Of a DNA stretch of 32,000 nt, positions 4,998 through 9,948 are shown one piece after another. Origin of the DNA: Schaalia odontolytica (GTDB lineage: Bacteria; Actinomycetota; Actinomycetes; Actinomycetales; Actinomycetaceae). The notes under the pieces were generated by a model that saw only the letters and a program-made list of their open reading frames with translations, did no database searches and was not told the origin of the DNA. Every line of letters starts with the position of its first letter. Position 1 is the stretch's first letter. The stretch is from NCBI RefSeq assembly GCF_005696695.1, contig NZ_CP040006.1:120001-152000 (forward strand). Direction: 5' to 3'. The translations under genes and the position numbers were made by a program.

Positions 4998-5028
4998 TGC
5001 GTTTCGTGGACGAGGTCACCTCGGTGGG
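4998..5028 (+). repeat. 31-bp direct repeat, copy at the nrdF-proximal end of the islet
   Basis: TGCGTTTCGTGGACGAGGTCACCTCGGTGGG matches 9918-9948 at 30 of 31 positions (hand alignment; the mismatch is 5003 versus 9923). It contains the stop codon (TCA at 5016-5018 on the + strand) of the 5016..5426 gene. Confidence 0.85.
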
Positions 5029-5426
5029 TCGGATCCTTCTTCGTCGACGTCGATCGGATCGCCGTTCTCATCCAACATGCCGTGGCGCTTCATGTACTGG
5101 TACCGAGCGTCGGCCCAGCGGGGAACGGGTAAGGGAAAGAAATGATAGATGGCAGCGATAAGAAAACAGAGTAGACCGGCGACGATGAGGATACCCGTGA
5201 CGATGTAATAAGAACTGAGGTCGTAAATAGCTTCTCCGAGGCTGCAGATGAAGAAGCCAAGGCCGACAAGTGGGCGTGTTGTTGCTTGGCTTCTCGCGCT
5301 GCTGCTCATCCGCGAGGTGATAATGCGGGAGTTGCTAGAGAAAGTGGTATCGAGATAGGTCTCCATGTACCAGGCACCAATAATCATGAGCCCGAAAATC
5401 GCACCACAGACTTCCCAGAAAATCAT
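5016..5426 (-). CDS. Small 3-TM membrane protein, paralogue 4 of the putative immunity family (C-terminus diverges at the islet boundary)
   Basis: 136 aa, beginning [34 protein letters not shown] lies upstream of ATG 5426. The conserved tail is [27 protein letters not shown], after which it ends [12 protein letters not shown] inside the direct repeat. Confidence 0.8.
5056..5123 (-). repeat. Conserved 3' gene module, copy in paralogue 4 (truncated, 68 bp)
   Basis: GGATCGCCGTTCTC...CCCAGCGGGG aligns with 5496-5589, 5983-6076 and 8166-8259. Confidence 0.8.
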
Positions 5427-5484
5427 GACTGCGAACCTCCACTGTTAATGCTTGCTGCGACTTCGCCGTTGAGTCCAGTGCTCA

Positions 5485-5889
5485 TTAATCTTCTTCCTCC
5501 GAAAGCTCGAACTGCGGGAGGGGATCGCCGTTCTCGTCCAGCATTCTGTGGCGCTTCATGTACTGGTACCGAGGGTCTATCCATCGGGGTACGGGTATCG
5601 GTGAAAAATACCAGACAACACCGATGATGAAAATTGCCAAAGTTATTGCAATAAGTGTCAGTTGGACAAACTGCGGAAATCTTCCATCATTGCCGATTGT
5701 CACGAAGCTGCCGACCAGAAATGCACTTCCTGTTGCAAGGGTGCCGATTGATTGGTACTTGTCATTCATGCGTGTTGCTGAGCTAATGAAGCGCGCATTC
5801 TGGCCAAATTGCGAATCCGTATAAGTCTCGCAATACCACATAGCTAGAATTGCGAGGCTAAACGGTATGCCGATGATTCCCCAAATCAT
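5485..5889 (-). CDS. Small 3-TM membrane protein, paralogue 3 of the putative immunity family
   Basis: The ORF track extends to 6015, overlapping the upstream gene. ATG 5889 (GGAGGTGG upstream) gives MIWGIIGIPFSLAILAMWYCETYTDSQFGQNARF..., aligning with the N-termini of the other paralogues. The tail is [38 protein letters not shown]. Confidence 0.8.
   Translation of the reverse strand: MIWGIIGIPFSLAILAMWYCETYTDSQFGQNARFISSATRMNDKYQSIGTLATGSAFLVGSFVTIGNDGRFPQFVQLTLIAITLAIFIIGVVWYFSPIPVPRWIDPRYQYMKRHRMLDENGDPLPQFELSEEED
5496..5589 (-). repeat. Conserved 94-bp 3' gene module, copy in paralogue 3
   Basis: 6 mismatches in 94 against 8166-8259 by hand alignment. The rest of the gene is strongly diverged. 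Confidence 0.85.
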
Positions 5890-5968
5890 GAGGGTTGTCC
5901 ACCTCCGTGTATAGCGGAATAAGTAGCACTGTTGATGCCTGTTTTGACTTCTCGGTCGAATCCACTGC

Positions 5969-6394
5969 TCATGAATCTTCTTCCTCCGAAAGCTCGAACT
6001 GTGGGAGGGGATCACCGTTCTCGTCCAGCATGCCGTGCCGCTTCATGTATTGGTACCGAGCGTCGGCCCAGCGGGGGACAGGGAATGGGAAGAAGCAAAT
6101 GAAACCTATGACAATAAGTGCTAGCCCAACGATGGCGATACTGAGGGAAGGAATAAGGATGATGCGTATGTTGGGAAGGAGGTCGGTTAGAATTGCCGCC
6201 AGTGCAAACAGTGAGAATCCTGTTGAGATAAATAGTGGAGACAGGGAATCGCCGCTTGTGTTCTTATCGTTTCGATCGCCCATCTCTCGCCATAGTGCGG
6301 CAATAGGGGAGTCTGTGTAAGTTTCCACATACCATGAATACAGGCCGAATAGACCGATGGCTAGGCCCGCAAAGGACCATAGATAGCTCATCAT
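5969..6394 (-). CDS. Small 3-TM membrane protein, paralogue 2 of the putative immunity family
   Basis: 141 aa, beginning MMSYLWSFAGLAIGLFGLYSWYVETYTDSP. AGGAG lies upstream. The tail is [39 protein letters not shown]. Confidence 0.8.
   Translation of the reverse strand: MMSYLWSFAGLAIGLFGLYSWYVETYTDSPIAALWREMGDRNDKNTSGDSLSPLFISTGFSLFALAAILTDLLPNIRIILIPSLSIAIVGLALIVIGFICFFPFPVPRWADARYQYMKRHGMLDENGDPLPQFELSEEEDS
5983..6076 (-). repeat. Conserved 94-bp 3' gene module, copy in paralogue 2
   Basis: 5 mismatches in 94 against 8166-8259 by hand alignment. About 30 bp beyond the stop codon is also shared with the paralogue 3 copy. Confidence 0.85.
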
Positions 6395-8122: not shown

Positions 8123-8559
8123 GGTGTCCCCCATCCCTGATCGTTGTCAGCGGACTCCTCGTCGTCCTCCGAAAGCTCGAACTGCGGGAGGGGATCGCCG
8201 TTCTCGTCCAGCATTCCGTGGCGCTTCATGTACTGGTACCGAGCGTCGGCCCAGCGGGGAATAGGCAATGGAGAAAAACGCCAGATCAGAGAAATGAGTA
8301 TGACAAGCAAGGTGAGGATAAGTAGAGAGTTGATAACGAGGTTTGGCAATTTAAGCTCGTTGCATATGATGACGATGGCTGCAAAAATGAATACGACTCC
8401 TGTTGCGGGGAATCCGATGGCATCTGACTTAGGATGTGCGTGAAAGGTTGTGCTAATAAAGCGTGAATTCTTCCCGTATGACGTATCCGTGAAGGTCTGA
8501 ATGTACCATGTCGCTAAAATAACTGTTCCGAATAGAAGGGCAAGTATTCCCAATAACAT
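8119..8559 (-). CDS. Small 3-TM membrane protein, paralogue 1; putative cognate immunity protein
   Basis: 146 aa, beginning MLLGILALLFGTVILATWYIQTFTDTSYGKNSRF. ATG 8559 lies 2 nt after the toxin stop, and its GGAGGA RBS is formed by the last codons of the toxin gene. The tail is [39 protein letters not shown]. Confidence 0.8.
   Translation of the reverse strand: MLLGILALLFGTVILATWYIQTFTDTSYGKNSRFISTTFHAHPKSDAIGFPATGVVFIFAAIVIICNELKLPNLVINSLLILTLLVILISLIWRFSPLPIPRWADARYQYMKRHGMLDENGDPLPQFELSEDDEESADNDQGWGTP
8166..8259 (-). repeat. Conserved 94-bp 3' gene module, copy in paralogue 1
   Basis: CCTCCGAAAGCTCGAACTGCGGGAGGGGATCGCCGTTCTCGTCCAGCAT...CCCAGCGGGG is shared with the three other paralogues. 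Confidence 0.85.
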
Positions 8560-8561
8560 TA

Positions 8562-9749
8562 TTATCCTCCGTGAATTGCTGTGTGTATCCCGTTGTTCGC
8601 TAGGTCTGCTAGGTAGCTTCCGGTGGCGCTTCCAATAAGTCCGCCAACTACTCCTCCGATAATTCCTCCAGCAAGAATGCCGACGGGGCCTCCGAATGCG
8701 CCAATGGTAGCGCCGATTTTTGCGCCTGCGACACCACCTGCGAAACCTAGTCCGCCGCTGGCACCGCCCTTGAGACCGGCTCTTGCTACCTTCTCGCCCT
8801 GTCCCATCTCCGGGTGGTGGTAGGAGTCCGACTGGTAGCTGTCGTAGGCGCTGACGACTCCGTCGAGGACCGCGCAGGCGCGGCCTGCGACTTTGCCGCC
8901 AATGCGCAATGCGTCGGCGGTCTTGATCGCTCGACTGCCGCCCTTGACGGCGTCCACCCCCGGGACTTTCCAGTTCTTGAGGTTCCCTCGCTCGGTGATC
9001 TGCTTCCAGGGGGACGCGTCTTTGATTCCGGCCGGCGCCTGGTACTTGGCGCCCTTCGCCTGTAGATAGACCGACTCGATCCCGTCTGCGAGGGTATTGC
9101 GCATGGTGTCCGCCCAGCCCGGTAGGCGAGCTGGCACATTCAACCCCGTGGGGAATCCGTACGTGCCGACGAATTTGTTGAACACGGGGAGGAGGGTCGA
9201 CTCCCAGACGGTGGGGTCGATACCCGCGAGGTCGTCGCCGAACAGTGTTTCCGCGTAGGCGAACTTCCTCTGGTTGATCTCGCAGCGTGAGCGCAGCGAC
9301 GCGAAGAAGGCGCCAACGCCGCCCGGGACGTTTGCTGGGTGGCTGATGGTCACTTTCGTTCCGTCACGAGAAACCGTGAGCCCGGCGCCGCTGGCGTCGG
9401 TGACAATGGCTCGAAACTCTGTCCTGATGGGTTTCAGGGTGCCCCCGTAGTCCTCCAGGGCGGATTGCAGCGAGCGGAAACATGACAGCGCATGCTCGCT
9501 CGCGGAGATGACATTCGTCAGGTGCTCGACGACGGTCTCCACCAGCCTGGCTCTCTGATGTTCGACCATCCCTCGGGCGGCCGTCGCGTCGCCAATGGCC
9601 TCGTCGAGTGCCGCGATCGGTTTGTCGCACTGGTCCTTCAGCGACAGGATCGCGTCCACCTTAACCGGAAAGTCCCACGAAAAGGACTCGGCGAATTCTA
9701 CGGTTCCTGCAGATGTGGGAACCGTTGAGGTGGCTGGAAGGGGGGGCAT
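8562..9749 (-). CDS. Putative secreted polymorphic toxin: helical N-terminal region plus C-terminal glycine-zipper (membrane-inserting) module
   Basis: The ORF runs to 9797 (411 aa). ATG 9749 has GGAG 7 nt upstream, giving ~395 aa. No Sec signal peptide. The N-terminal ~100 aa is helical (VKVDAILSLKDQCDKPIAALDEAIGDATAARGMVEHQRARLVETVVEHL...). The C-terminal ~60 aa is GGASGGLGFAGGVAGAKIGATIGAFGGPVGILAGGIIGGVVGGLIGSATG, a GxxxG/A zipper. Confidence 0.75.
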   Translation of the reverse strand: MPPLPATSTVPTSAGTVEFAESFSWDFPVKVDAILSLKDQCDKPIAALDEAIGDATAARGMVEHQRARLVETVVEHLTNVISASEHALSCFRSLQSALEDYGGTLKPIRTEFRAIVTDASGAGLTVSRDGTKVTISHPANVPGGVGAFFASLRSRCEINQRKFAYAETLFGDDLAGIDPTVWESTLLPVFNKFVGTYGFPTGLNVPARLPGWADTMRNTLADGIESVYLQAKGAKYQAPAGIKDASPWKQITERGNLKNWKVPGVDAVKGGSRAIKTADALRIGGKVAGRACAVLDGVVSAYDSYQSDSYHHPEMGQGEKVARAGLKGGASGGLGFAGGVAGAKIGATIGAFGGPVGILAGGIIGGVVGGLIGSATGSYLADLANNGIHTAIHGG

Positions 9750-9917
9750 TGCTTCACTCCGTTGGAACAATCGGGCGACATGCGTGTTGCGCATCACTTA
9801 TTGGTCAGCGTACTCCGGTTGTTTAACAATCTGCAGTGAAACCTGGCCGAAAAGTGCCGACGAATGATGTCGCCTGAGGTCGTGAGCGGATTTCCCATAC
9901 CGCCAGTGGCTGGAGTT

Positions 9918-9948
9918 TGCGTGTCGTGGACGAGGTCACCTCGGTGGG
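9918..9948 (+). repeat. 31-bp direct repeat, copy at the distal end of the islet
   Basis: TGCGTGTCGTGGACGAGGTCACCTCGGTGGG; see 4998-5028. It lies in the divergent intergenic region between the toxin gene and the 9964 gene. Confidence 0.85.

Follow-up and report, generated by a model that had tools for sequence, protein, structure and literature searches.

A short locus-specific repeat bounds toxin, immunity and cargo modules upstream of nrdF in oral Schaalia and Actinomyces

Polymorphic toxin/immunity loci shape strain competition in dense communities, such as dental plaque, and whole-module gain and loss in such loci has so far mostly been inferred from homology blocks inside genes. The T7SS (type VII secretion system) immunity arrays of Firmicutes, such as esaG and tipC, evolve by homologous recombination between paralogues at short homology blocks (Garrett et al. 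2022, PMC9484751), and TspA/TsaI and EsxX are glycine-zipper toxin loci of Staphylococcus aureus (PMC7456083, PMC12744356). For the orphan immunity arrays of the T6SS (type VI secretion system) of Vibrio cholerae, a sequential displacement model has been proposed (PMC5361080). The rAID-1 loci of Bacteroidales are recombinase-associated acquired interbacterial defence (AID) immunity arrays (Ross et al., bioRxiv 10.1101/471110). Here we describe a toxin/immunity islet upstream of nrdF in a 32-kb stretch of Schaalia odontolytica (contig NZ_CP040006.1 of GCF_005696695.1, positions 120,001-152,000; referred to as the window), whose modules are bounded by a short direct repeat, R. As at the esaG/tipC and TspA/EsxX loci, several small membrane immunity paralogues, none identical to another, come after a glycine-zipper toxin. 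Islet coordinates are window positions, R1, R2 and R3 are the copies of R in the window, and L-numbers (L004, L159 and so on) designate related loci.

The presence of 31-bp direct repeats around the islet had been noticed in a sequence-only reading of the window, and it is borne out by pattern matching. The 31-mer TGCGT(T/G)TCGTGGACGAGGTCACCTCGGTGGG has two exact pattern matches, at 4998-5028 and 9918-9948, in the same orientation; the two copies agree at 30/31 positions, the sole difference being T/G, and shuffled sequence yielded a match in 0/100 trials. A third copy of the core, which the same reading had placed between the toxin and the orphan-immunity modules, is equally real. The 17-mer TGTCGTGGACGAGGTCA is found exactly at 6525-6541 and 9922-9938, and with one mismatch at 5002-5018, and repeat finding places all three copies in one family, D4, in which the middle copy shows 77% identity across 31 nt. 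The near-invariant core of R is GAGGTGACCTCGTCCACGA, the identical stretch being 19-47 nt long depending on the allele, and R includes a perfect 13-bp palindrome, CGAGGTGACCTCG. A possible resemblance of TCGTCCACG, within R, to a DnaA box was considered. Near-matches to R elsewhere in the window are 1-3 bases off and are presumably codon-usage noise.

The repeat also terminates genes, as had been claimed. The TGA within it (TCA on the plus strand) is the stop codon of both Imm1 (open reading frame, ORF, 5016-5426) and X1 (ORF 6539-6910), and the last gene before R, whichever it is, ends ...CCA CCG AGG TGA. R1 (9918-9948), in which no gene terminates, is upstream of both the divergent TPR gene and the toxin, 24 nt from the TPR ATG (9973; for an alternative GTG at 9964 the distance is 15 nt) and about 170 nt from the toxin start. 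The spacing of R to its neighbors is fixed, with the core 31 nt from the TPR start and the core start 126-129 nt from the nrdF ATG.

The role of R as a boundary is illustrated by the survey of related loci. A first survey of one genome per species, scanned with NrdF as the anchor, turned up four close species, among which three different layouts occur. In L021 the site is empty, with a single R in the 156 nt between the TPR gene and nrdF. L022 carries the toxin module alone, with X1 ending in R directly before nrdF and a degraded copy adjoining the TPR gene, and in L023 two R copies enclose a different cargo, a choline-binding gene. A metagenome scan with the query GARGTGACCTCGTCCACGA returned 120 stretches, 92 of which, carrying the 19-mer, are this locus. 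The remaining 28 are unrelated G+C-rich contigs that share the 19-mer alone; their flanks are unlike the extended repeat and they are therefore chance matches. The possibility that R is a dispersed repeat, which the sequence-only reading had named as refuting its proposal, is rejected on this ground, every non-chance match among the 120 stretches being this locus. An origin as a phage attachment site (attB) was rejected as well, since no viral contig in IMG/VR has an exact match to the 19-mer. R occurs at this single locus in oral Actinomyces/Schaalia.

Across about 90 related loci from genomes and metagenomes, R is direct in orientation at every locus and stands at each module boundary. The TPR/toxin junction, the position of R1, holds R in 34 loci; R was further found at the junctions Imm/nrdF (n=20), X1/nrdF, where only the first module is present (n=19), and X1/Imm (n=16). 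X1/Imm junctions that have no copy within three mismatches contain a decayed relic in every case. The single-copy TPR-R-nrdF arrangement, the empty site to be looked for in related genomes, was seen eight times; L127 is a contig break, leaving seven true empty sites (L021, L101, L134, L165, L176, L183 and L210). The 41 complete loci fall into 22 architectures, with immunity arrays of 1-6 genes. The modules headed by R are the toxin operon, the orphan-immunity array and nrdF, to which other strains add either a second TPR gene or a gene for a choline-binding esterase.

Within one lineage, the empty alleles L165 and L176 agree with the occupied allele L159 over 70/70 nt to the left and 90/90 nt to the right, the join falling within the 19-nt core. 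These joins and the single-R empty sites show that R truly bounds modules, which are gained and lost there. The units bounded in this way include unrelated cargo. The choline-binding cargo of L023 (7761-9794), between R copies, encodes a secreted protein of 677 aa that combines choline-binding repeats with a metallo-beta-lactamase fold, the domain layout of the pneumococcal phosphorylcholine esterase Pce/CbpE. This cargo is also present in L111, L122, L191 and L216, and upstream of the toxin in L155, L169 and L209; it is R-flanked in three contexts. A second TPR paralogue (TPR_b), about 62% identical to that of the window, forms its own R-flanked unit (for example, L179:2847-3946 and L129:5800-6905), placed before the toxin module in L179, L131 and L202 and after the immunity array in L129 and L196. 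The TPR cassettes are in reverse orientation to the other modules.

No X1/Tox or Imm/Tox junction, of the kind expected from a circle or tandem toxins, was seen among the approximately 90 loci, nor was an inverted R copy or a second genomic site found among the related loci. The statement that no recombinase is encoded nearby holds for all large ORFs of the 32-kb window, which contain no recombinase domain, and none was found in the gene tables or 10-kb flanks of the related loci.

The features of the islet are listed in the table. In the window, the locus is made up of three head-to-tail units: R1-toxin-Imm4-X3-X2-X1, R2-toxin remnant-Imm3-remnant-Imm2-remnant-Imm1 and R3-nrdF.

Features of the islet and its flanks (window positions)
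Feature	Position	Strand	Basis and remarks
nrdF, class Ib ribonucleotide reductase small subunit	3931..4893	-	Pfam Ribonuc_red_sm, E = 4e-97; conserved right-hand anchor
R3	4998..5028	-	adjoins nrdF; 19-nt core ends ~110 nt upstream of nrdF ATG
Imm1, last orphan immunity paralogue	5016..5426	-	ORF; tail ...DEEGSDPPR and stop run into R3
Imm2, orphan immunity paralogue	5485..5889	-	ORF; conserved 3' block
Toxin-tail remnant before Imm2	5890..5968	-	reads ...INSATYSAIHGG; translation compared with toxin C-terminus ...NGIHTAIHGG
Imm3, orphan immunity paralogue	5969..6394	-	ORF; conserved 3' block
3' remnant of deleted toxin gene, before Imm3	6395..6476	-	82% identity over 89 nt to L102-type toxin 3' end
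R2	6521..6551 (core 6525-6541)	-	internal, partly decayed; heads orphan-immunity module
X1, 123 aa	6539..6910	-	ORF; stop codon inside R2
X2, 229 aa, best-conserved module gene	6907..7596	-	ORF
X3, 177 aa, part of toxin module	7589..8122	-	ORF
Imm4, 146-aa small membrane immunity-type protein, cognate to toxin	8119..8559	-	ORF directly 3' of toxin
Toxin gene, ~395 aa from ATG at 9749	8562..9749	-	ORF; C-terminal glycine-zipper domain
R1	9918..9948	-	heads toxin module, between divergent TPR gene start and toxin leader; exact 31-mer pattern match
TPR-domain membrane protein gene	9973..10932	+	weak TPR matches (Pfam); left-hand anchor, transcribed away from islet; conserved neighbor in related loci

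All islet genes are on the minus strand, and the immunity genes have a G+C content of 46-55%, compared with 62-70% in the flanks. The middle copy, R2, divides the toxin module (toxin, Imm4, X3, X2 and X1) from the orphan immunity genes Imm3, Imm2 and Imm1. The toxin has a weak Pfam Gly-zipper match at residues 354-392, and its homologues (443 representatives) were found mainly through the C-terminal domain. Sequence search revealed no solved-structure relative, and a search with the N-terminus returned close relatives alone and no further information. Imm4 is paralogous to Imm1-3, with which it has in common a conserved 3' block of 111-156 nt (repeat families D1/D2). The four immunity genes are co-directional, with repeat families D1, D2 and D4 present; Imm4 accompanies the toxin, and Imm3/2/1 are at 35-55% pairwise identity. 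In 20 related loci, the Imm1-type terminal tail is joined to whichever paralogue precedes nrdF.

X3 is constantly accompanied by X2 and X1 in related loci, and X1 alleles all terminate in an R copy or a degenerate R relic. X1-X3 have no relatives in Pfam, NCBIfam or PDB sequences. The homologues of X2 form 44 clusters only, each at least 59% identical, and every one whose context was checked is this locus; its AlphaFold2 model (mean predicted local distance difference test score, pLDDT, 46.6) is unusable. Just past nrdF, at 1108-3804 on the plus strand, lies a gene for an 898-aa surface protein with a SpaA-type prealbumin-like domain and an apparent C-terminal membrane anchor. This protein is strain-variable, with 59-96% identity, and is duplicated in L022. 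On comparing L011 (GCA_001462375.1) with the window, the gene coordinates are offset by 28 for the TPR gene and by 27 for the genes to its left, as though the two differed in length by 1 nt, perhaps within the run of G immediately upstream of the toxin start (9740-9750).

The origin of the orphan-immunity module is indicated by the toxin remnants within it. The spacer between R2 and Imm3 is 144 nt long, and an 89-nt stretch at its end corresponds, with 82% identity, to the 3' end of the L102 toxin gene, a toxin type whose partner immunity gene is Imm3-like. Toxin-tail peptides are also encoded in the spacers before Imm2 and Imm1. R2 therefore heads a second toxin module, the toxin gene of which has since been deleted; with remnants before Imm3, Imm2 and Imm1, the array is a chain of R-headed modules, and the orphan module was originally a complete second toxin module. 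In other alleles, R and about 45 nt of toxin leader are fused directly to an immunity gene start through an 8-nt microhomology.

The antiquity of the islet was examined through the most distant X2 homologues (62-65% identical), which form a sister clade with the same locus between g191 and nrdF. The sister clade has no TPR gene at the locus and a single R-like copy (GGGGTGACCTCGTCCACGA), located about 170 nt upstream of the toxin, with none adjoining nrdF. This copy is within a 32-nt block that is 94% identical and is the only conserved part of a 438-nt intergenic region. In the main clade, the divergence of toxin and X2 tracks that of the TPR gene. The occurrence of the module in the sister clade too, at this very locus, together with the parallel divergence, indicates that the toxin module is an old resident of the locus and not a recent foreign insertion. 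The occupied state is probably the older one, and the empty sites are probably secondary deletions. Since a single R is found upstream of the sister-clade toxin, R predates its own duplication. The stepwise accretion of modules at one site, as pictured in the sequence-only reading, stands insofar as modules are present or absent exactly at R; insertion into an ancestral empty site is not supported, the sister clade being occupied and having one R.

Two further features of the sister clade were observed. Upstream of its single R, L224 (4900-5030), like L221, L225 and L229, has a tandem duplication of about 62 nt; an inverted repeat, GGGGGCGA...TCGCCCCC, is present in each unit, and at the end of the first there is a degenerate R-like sequence. 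The toxin homologue of L229 (GCA_001057055.1, JVEY01000053.1) is named 'Cellulomonas flavigena' at its source, and the contig bears an Actinomyces-type g191-toxin-nrdF-fhaA locus; the organism label may be wrong.

The conservation of R itself was assessed on copies that had not been used for locus discovery. In these, the major-allele frequency is 0.92-0.98 in the core compared with 0.57-0.86 in the flanks. The nrdF- and toxin-adjoining copies are nearly invariant, with R3 the best conserved across related loci (GGTGACCTCGTCCACGA is invariant), and internal copies decay. In several copies the left half of the 13-bp palindrome is not conserved. The length of the stretch that is identical between R copies varies with the allele: L159 has about 21 nt, the copies on either side of the choline-binding cargo agree over about 29 nt, those of the window over 31 nt and those of the L167 group over 47 nt. 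In this last group, the toxin-proximal R has a hybrid right flank, partly nrdF-type and partly toxin-type. Between R3 and the nrdF start (4894-4997 in the window), comparison with related loci reveals that the approximately 50 nt between R and the likely -10 element of nrdF (TATCCT) exist as two or three very different haplotypes, bracketed by near-identity in all strains, with R on one side and GCGAGGCCGCC onward on the other.

Because R is single and conserved upstream of the toxin in the sister clade, it probably has a function of its own. The palindrome and the fixed spacing to the TPR and nrdF starts suggest a putative protein-binding site. Several more specific roles were considered and rejected. 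R is not a general nrdF control element, since 76 other actinobacterial nrdF loci lack it, as does the region upstream of nrdF in the sister clade, and it is not a general cis-element of the toxin family, as the paralogous toxin locus L228 (41% identity) has no R. An RNA element is not indicated either, as R with its flanks folds like shuffled sequence (z -1.6 to +1.2), the 31-mer alone forms a 5-bp hairpin, and there is no Rfam match in 3800-10200. No promoter or intrinsic terminator consensus was found around either terminal R copy.

Not all changes at the locus take place at R, and homologous-recombination breakpoints are frequent elsewhere in it. L004 and L005 (L004:1-1700 and L005 were taken from Logan SRR26142730 and SRR26748255), from the same species as the window, consist of the toxin, a single hybrid immunity gene that is Imm4-like at its 5' side and Imm1-like at its 3' side, R and nrdF. 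This allele arose when immunity paralogues recombined through their conserved 3' blocks of 111-156 nt, an event that removed X3, X2, X1 and three immunity genes. L141 (BNJV01000169.1) is a mosaic in which the toxin is 66% identical to that of the window in its N-terminal part and 100% in its C-terminal part, X2 is 62% identical (sister-clade-like), and all four immunity genes are 100% identical; it testifies to inter-clade exchange with intragenic breakpoints. Loss of the TPR gene through R was tried as an explanation of the TPR-less alleles and rejected: these retain an in-frame stub of six codons (M T T P I R stop; L173:900-1000, also L102, L116, L194 and others), the join apparently lying, by eye, at a short GGTG.GCG-type match, and the junction is common to all 12 TPR-less g191/R alleles. 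The TPR truncation of L023 looks, by inspection, like a deletion at a 9-10-nt GCACGCGCC microhomology.

We think it moderately likely that R is a locus-specific boundary repeat at which modules are gained and lost by unequal or short-repeat homologous recombination, with no dedicated mobile-element enzyme. Direct R copies would recombine either by unequal crossing-over between sister chromosomes or by exchange with the DNA of other strains. One such R x R exchange would delete a module and leave a single R, the empty site, and another would stack the modules of two alleles in tandem, which is accretion. Inside the modules, microhomology deletions may take out toxin genes, and the arrays would be reshuffled as immunity paralogues recombine through their conserved 3' blocks. 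The variable length of the identical stretch (21, 29, 31 or 47 nt) and the hybrid flank are as expected for crossovers or conversion tracts with variable ends. Homologous recombination is favored as no circle junction, inverted copy, second site or recombinase was seen.

Several considerations weigh against this proposal. The identical core of 19-21 nt does not exceed the length usually given as the minimum for efficient RecA-dependent exchange, and despite this short core precise loss at R is recurrent, in at least four lineages. The origin of the first second copy of R is unexplained by homologous recombination, and the near-invariant core of the terminal copies requires an extra assumption, either function or frequent homogenization. 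As to function, R has none of the promoter, terminator, Rfam or stable-fold signatures mentioned above.

The shortness of the core for homologous recombination, within which the empty alleles join, is also what lends some weight to a different explanation. R could be a dedicated site-specific recombination site, similar to att or attC, with a recombinase encoded elsewhere that moves operon-sized cassettes, so that the region upstream of nrdF would be an integron-like platform. All modules, even unrelated cargo such as the 2.4-kb choline-binding metallo-hydrolase gene and the second TPR paralogue, are bounded by direct R; the TPR_b cassette occurs on either side of the other modules, precise loss recurs in several lineages, and core conservation far exceeds that of the flanks. 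We nevertheless consider this explanation unlikely. The searches of the window and of the 10-kb flanks gave no recombinase, circle-type X1/Tox or Imm/Tox junctions are missing from the approximately 90 loci, and R is at no other locus and in no viral contig. Internal copies decay and are thus not maintained as sites, the duplicated stretch and the right-flank breakpoints vary, and R lacks a recombinase-type arm pair around a 6-8-bp spacer. Moreover, unequal crossing-over and deletion can derive all observed orders. The att-site interpretation of the sequence-only reading is unsupported on the same evidence. A related version, in which R is the recombination site of an Actinomycetaceae cassette-exchange platform without an adjacent integrase, served by a trans-acting recombinase or by a repair pathway that an R-bound protein recruits, appears to us likewise unlikely. 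If true, such a platform would capture, stack and excise toxin/immunity operons, the choline-binding esterase gene and TPR paralogues at one site upstream of nrdF.

The perfect palindrome and the fixed distances to the TPR start (31 nt) and the nrdF ATG (126-129 nt) would also suit an R that is mainly a cis-regulatory operator before each transcription unit (toxin operon, orphan array, nrdF and TPR gene), with no special part in recombination. R would then be repeated because every unit requires one, and would fall at module boundaries simply because a unit starts with its control region. In the sister clade, where R is present once and has no partner for repeat recombination, it is the sole conserved block of the toxin-upstream region, and in the main clade the copies before nrdF and toxin are conserved while that before the orphan genes decays. 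However, where empty and occupied alleles are otherwise identical, their join falls precisely inside R, making R physically the crossover region. R is also missing upstream of the sister-clade nrdF, at the 76 other actinobacterial nrdF loci and at the paralogous toxin locus, the left half of the palindrome is unconserved in several copies, and no binding protein is known. We regard a mainly regulatory role as improbable. Finally, the target-site duplication suggested by the sequence-only reading, left by a transposon-like islet inserting upstream of nrdF, would account for direct repeats around the islet and for empty sites with one copy, but it is hardly credible for an ancient module with a third, internal repeat copy, no transposase and no terminal inverted repeats, and with an allele-variable repeat of 19-47 nt (duplicated stretches of 21, 29, 31 and 47 nt), far beyond known transposon duplications.

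Returning to recombination between R copies, the significance of the locus lies in one intergenic element that stands at every boundary in about 90 natural alleles and separates empty, single-module and stacked alleles to the nucleotide. It provides a 19-nt handle, in a genetically tractable oral species, on the question of whether very short repeats suffice for modular gain and loss or a dedicated factor is required, and it flags a conserved non-coding element beside nrdF.

The esaG/tipC arrays of the T7SS are among the closest known systems. In both those arrays and this locus, homology blocks lie at gene 3' ends and in intergenic regions, populations contain recombinant and deleted alleles (here the hybrid Imm4/Imm1 gene of L004/L005), and, as in T7SS immunity arrays, a toxin 3' fragment is found within the array. 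Unlike in the esaG/tipC arrays, a shorter intergenic repeat (19-47 nt) here bounds operon-sized modules and non-toxin cargo and marks the presence or absence of the whole islet. In contrast to the Staphylococcus/Firmicutes loci, the host is an actinobacterium. The window gave no Pfam or NCBIfam match to LXG or WXG100 and no detected T7SS gene; the N-terminal region of the toxin is helical. As in the V. cholerae T6SS and in orphan contact-dependent inhibition (CDI)/Rhs loci, old immunity genes are kept behind an active pair, the orphans are preceded by toxin 3' pieces, and strains swap alleles through homologous recombination, no integrase having been identified. In the T6SS and CDI/Rhs loci, however, the homology for recombination is inside the toxin gene, whereas here it lies outside, at the heads of modules, complete units stacking before toxin deletion.

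The array also resembles integrons and rAID-1 in being a one-locus series of co-oriented modules with a repeated intergenic sequence, low-G+C orphan immunity genes and strain-variable content. Unlike in rAID-1, where a XerD-like tyrosine recombinase gene stands at the array's 5' end, no such gene was found, and, unlike in an integron, no intI tyrosine recombinase is adjacent in the window or related loci. Integron attC sites are imperfect palindromes of about 55-140 bp with R''/L''/L'/R' boxes; R, in contrast, is 19-47 nt long and has only a 13-bp palindrome and no significant fold. Integron cassettes are mostly promoterless, single-ORF and co-oriented, whereas the modules here are operons of up to five genes, the TPR cassettes are reversed, and internal sites decay. 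Like the attL/attR of prophages and islands, the direct repeats flank a variable segment and empty sites have one copy; unlike those elements, the islet has no integrase or excisionase, no tRNA or gene-end target and no element-like genes, its repeat varies in length, and it is an ancient resident. R and X2 were seen at this locus alone, and without viral matches. What is new compared with all these systems is a very short, strongly conserved, locus-specific intergenic element that bounds both operon-sized modules and unrelated cargo.

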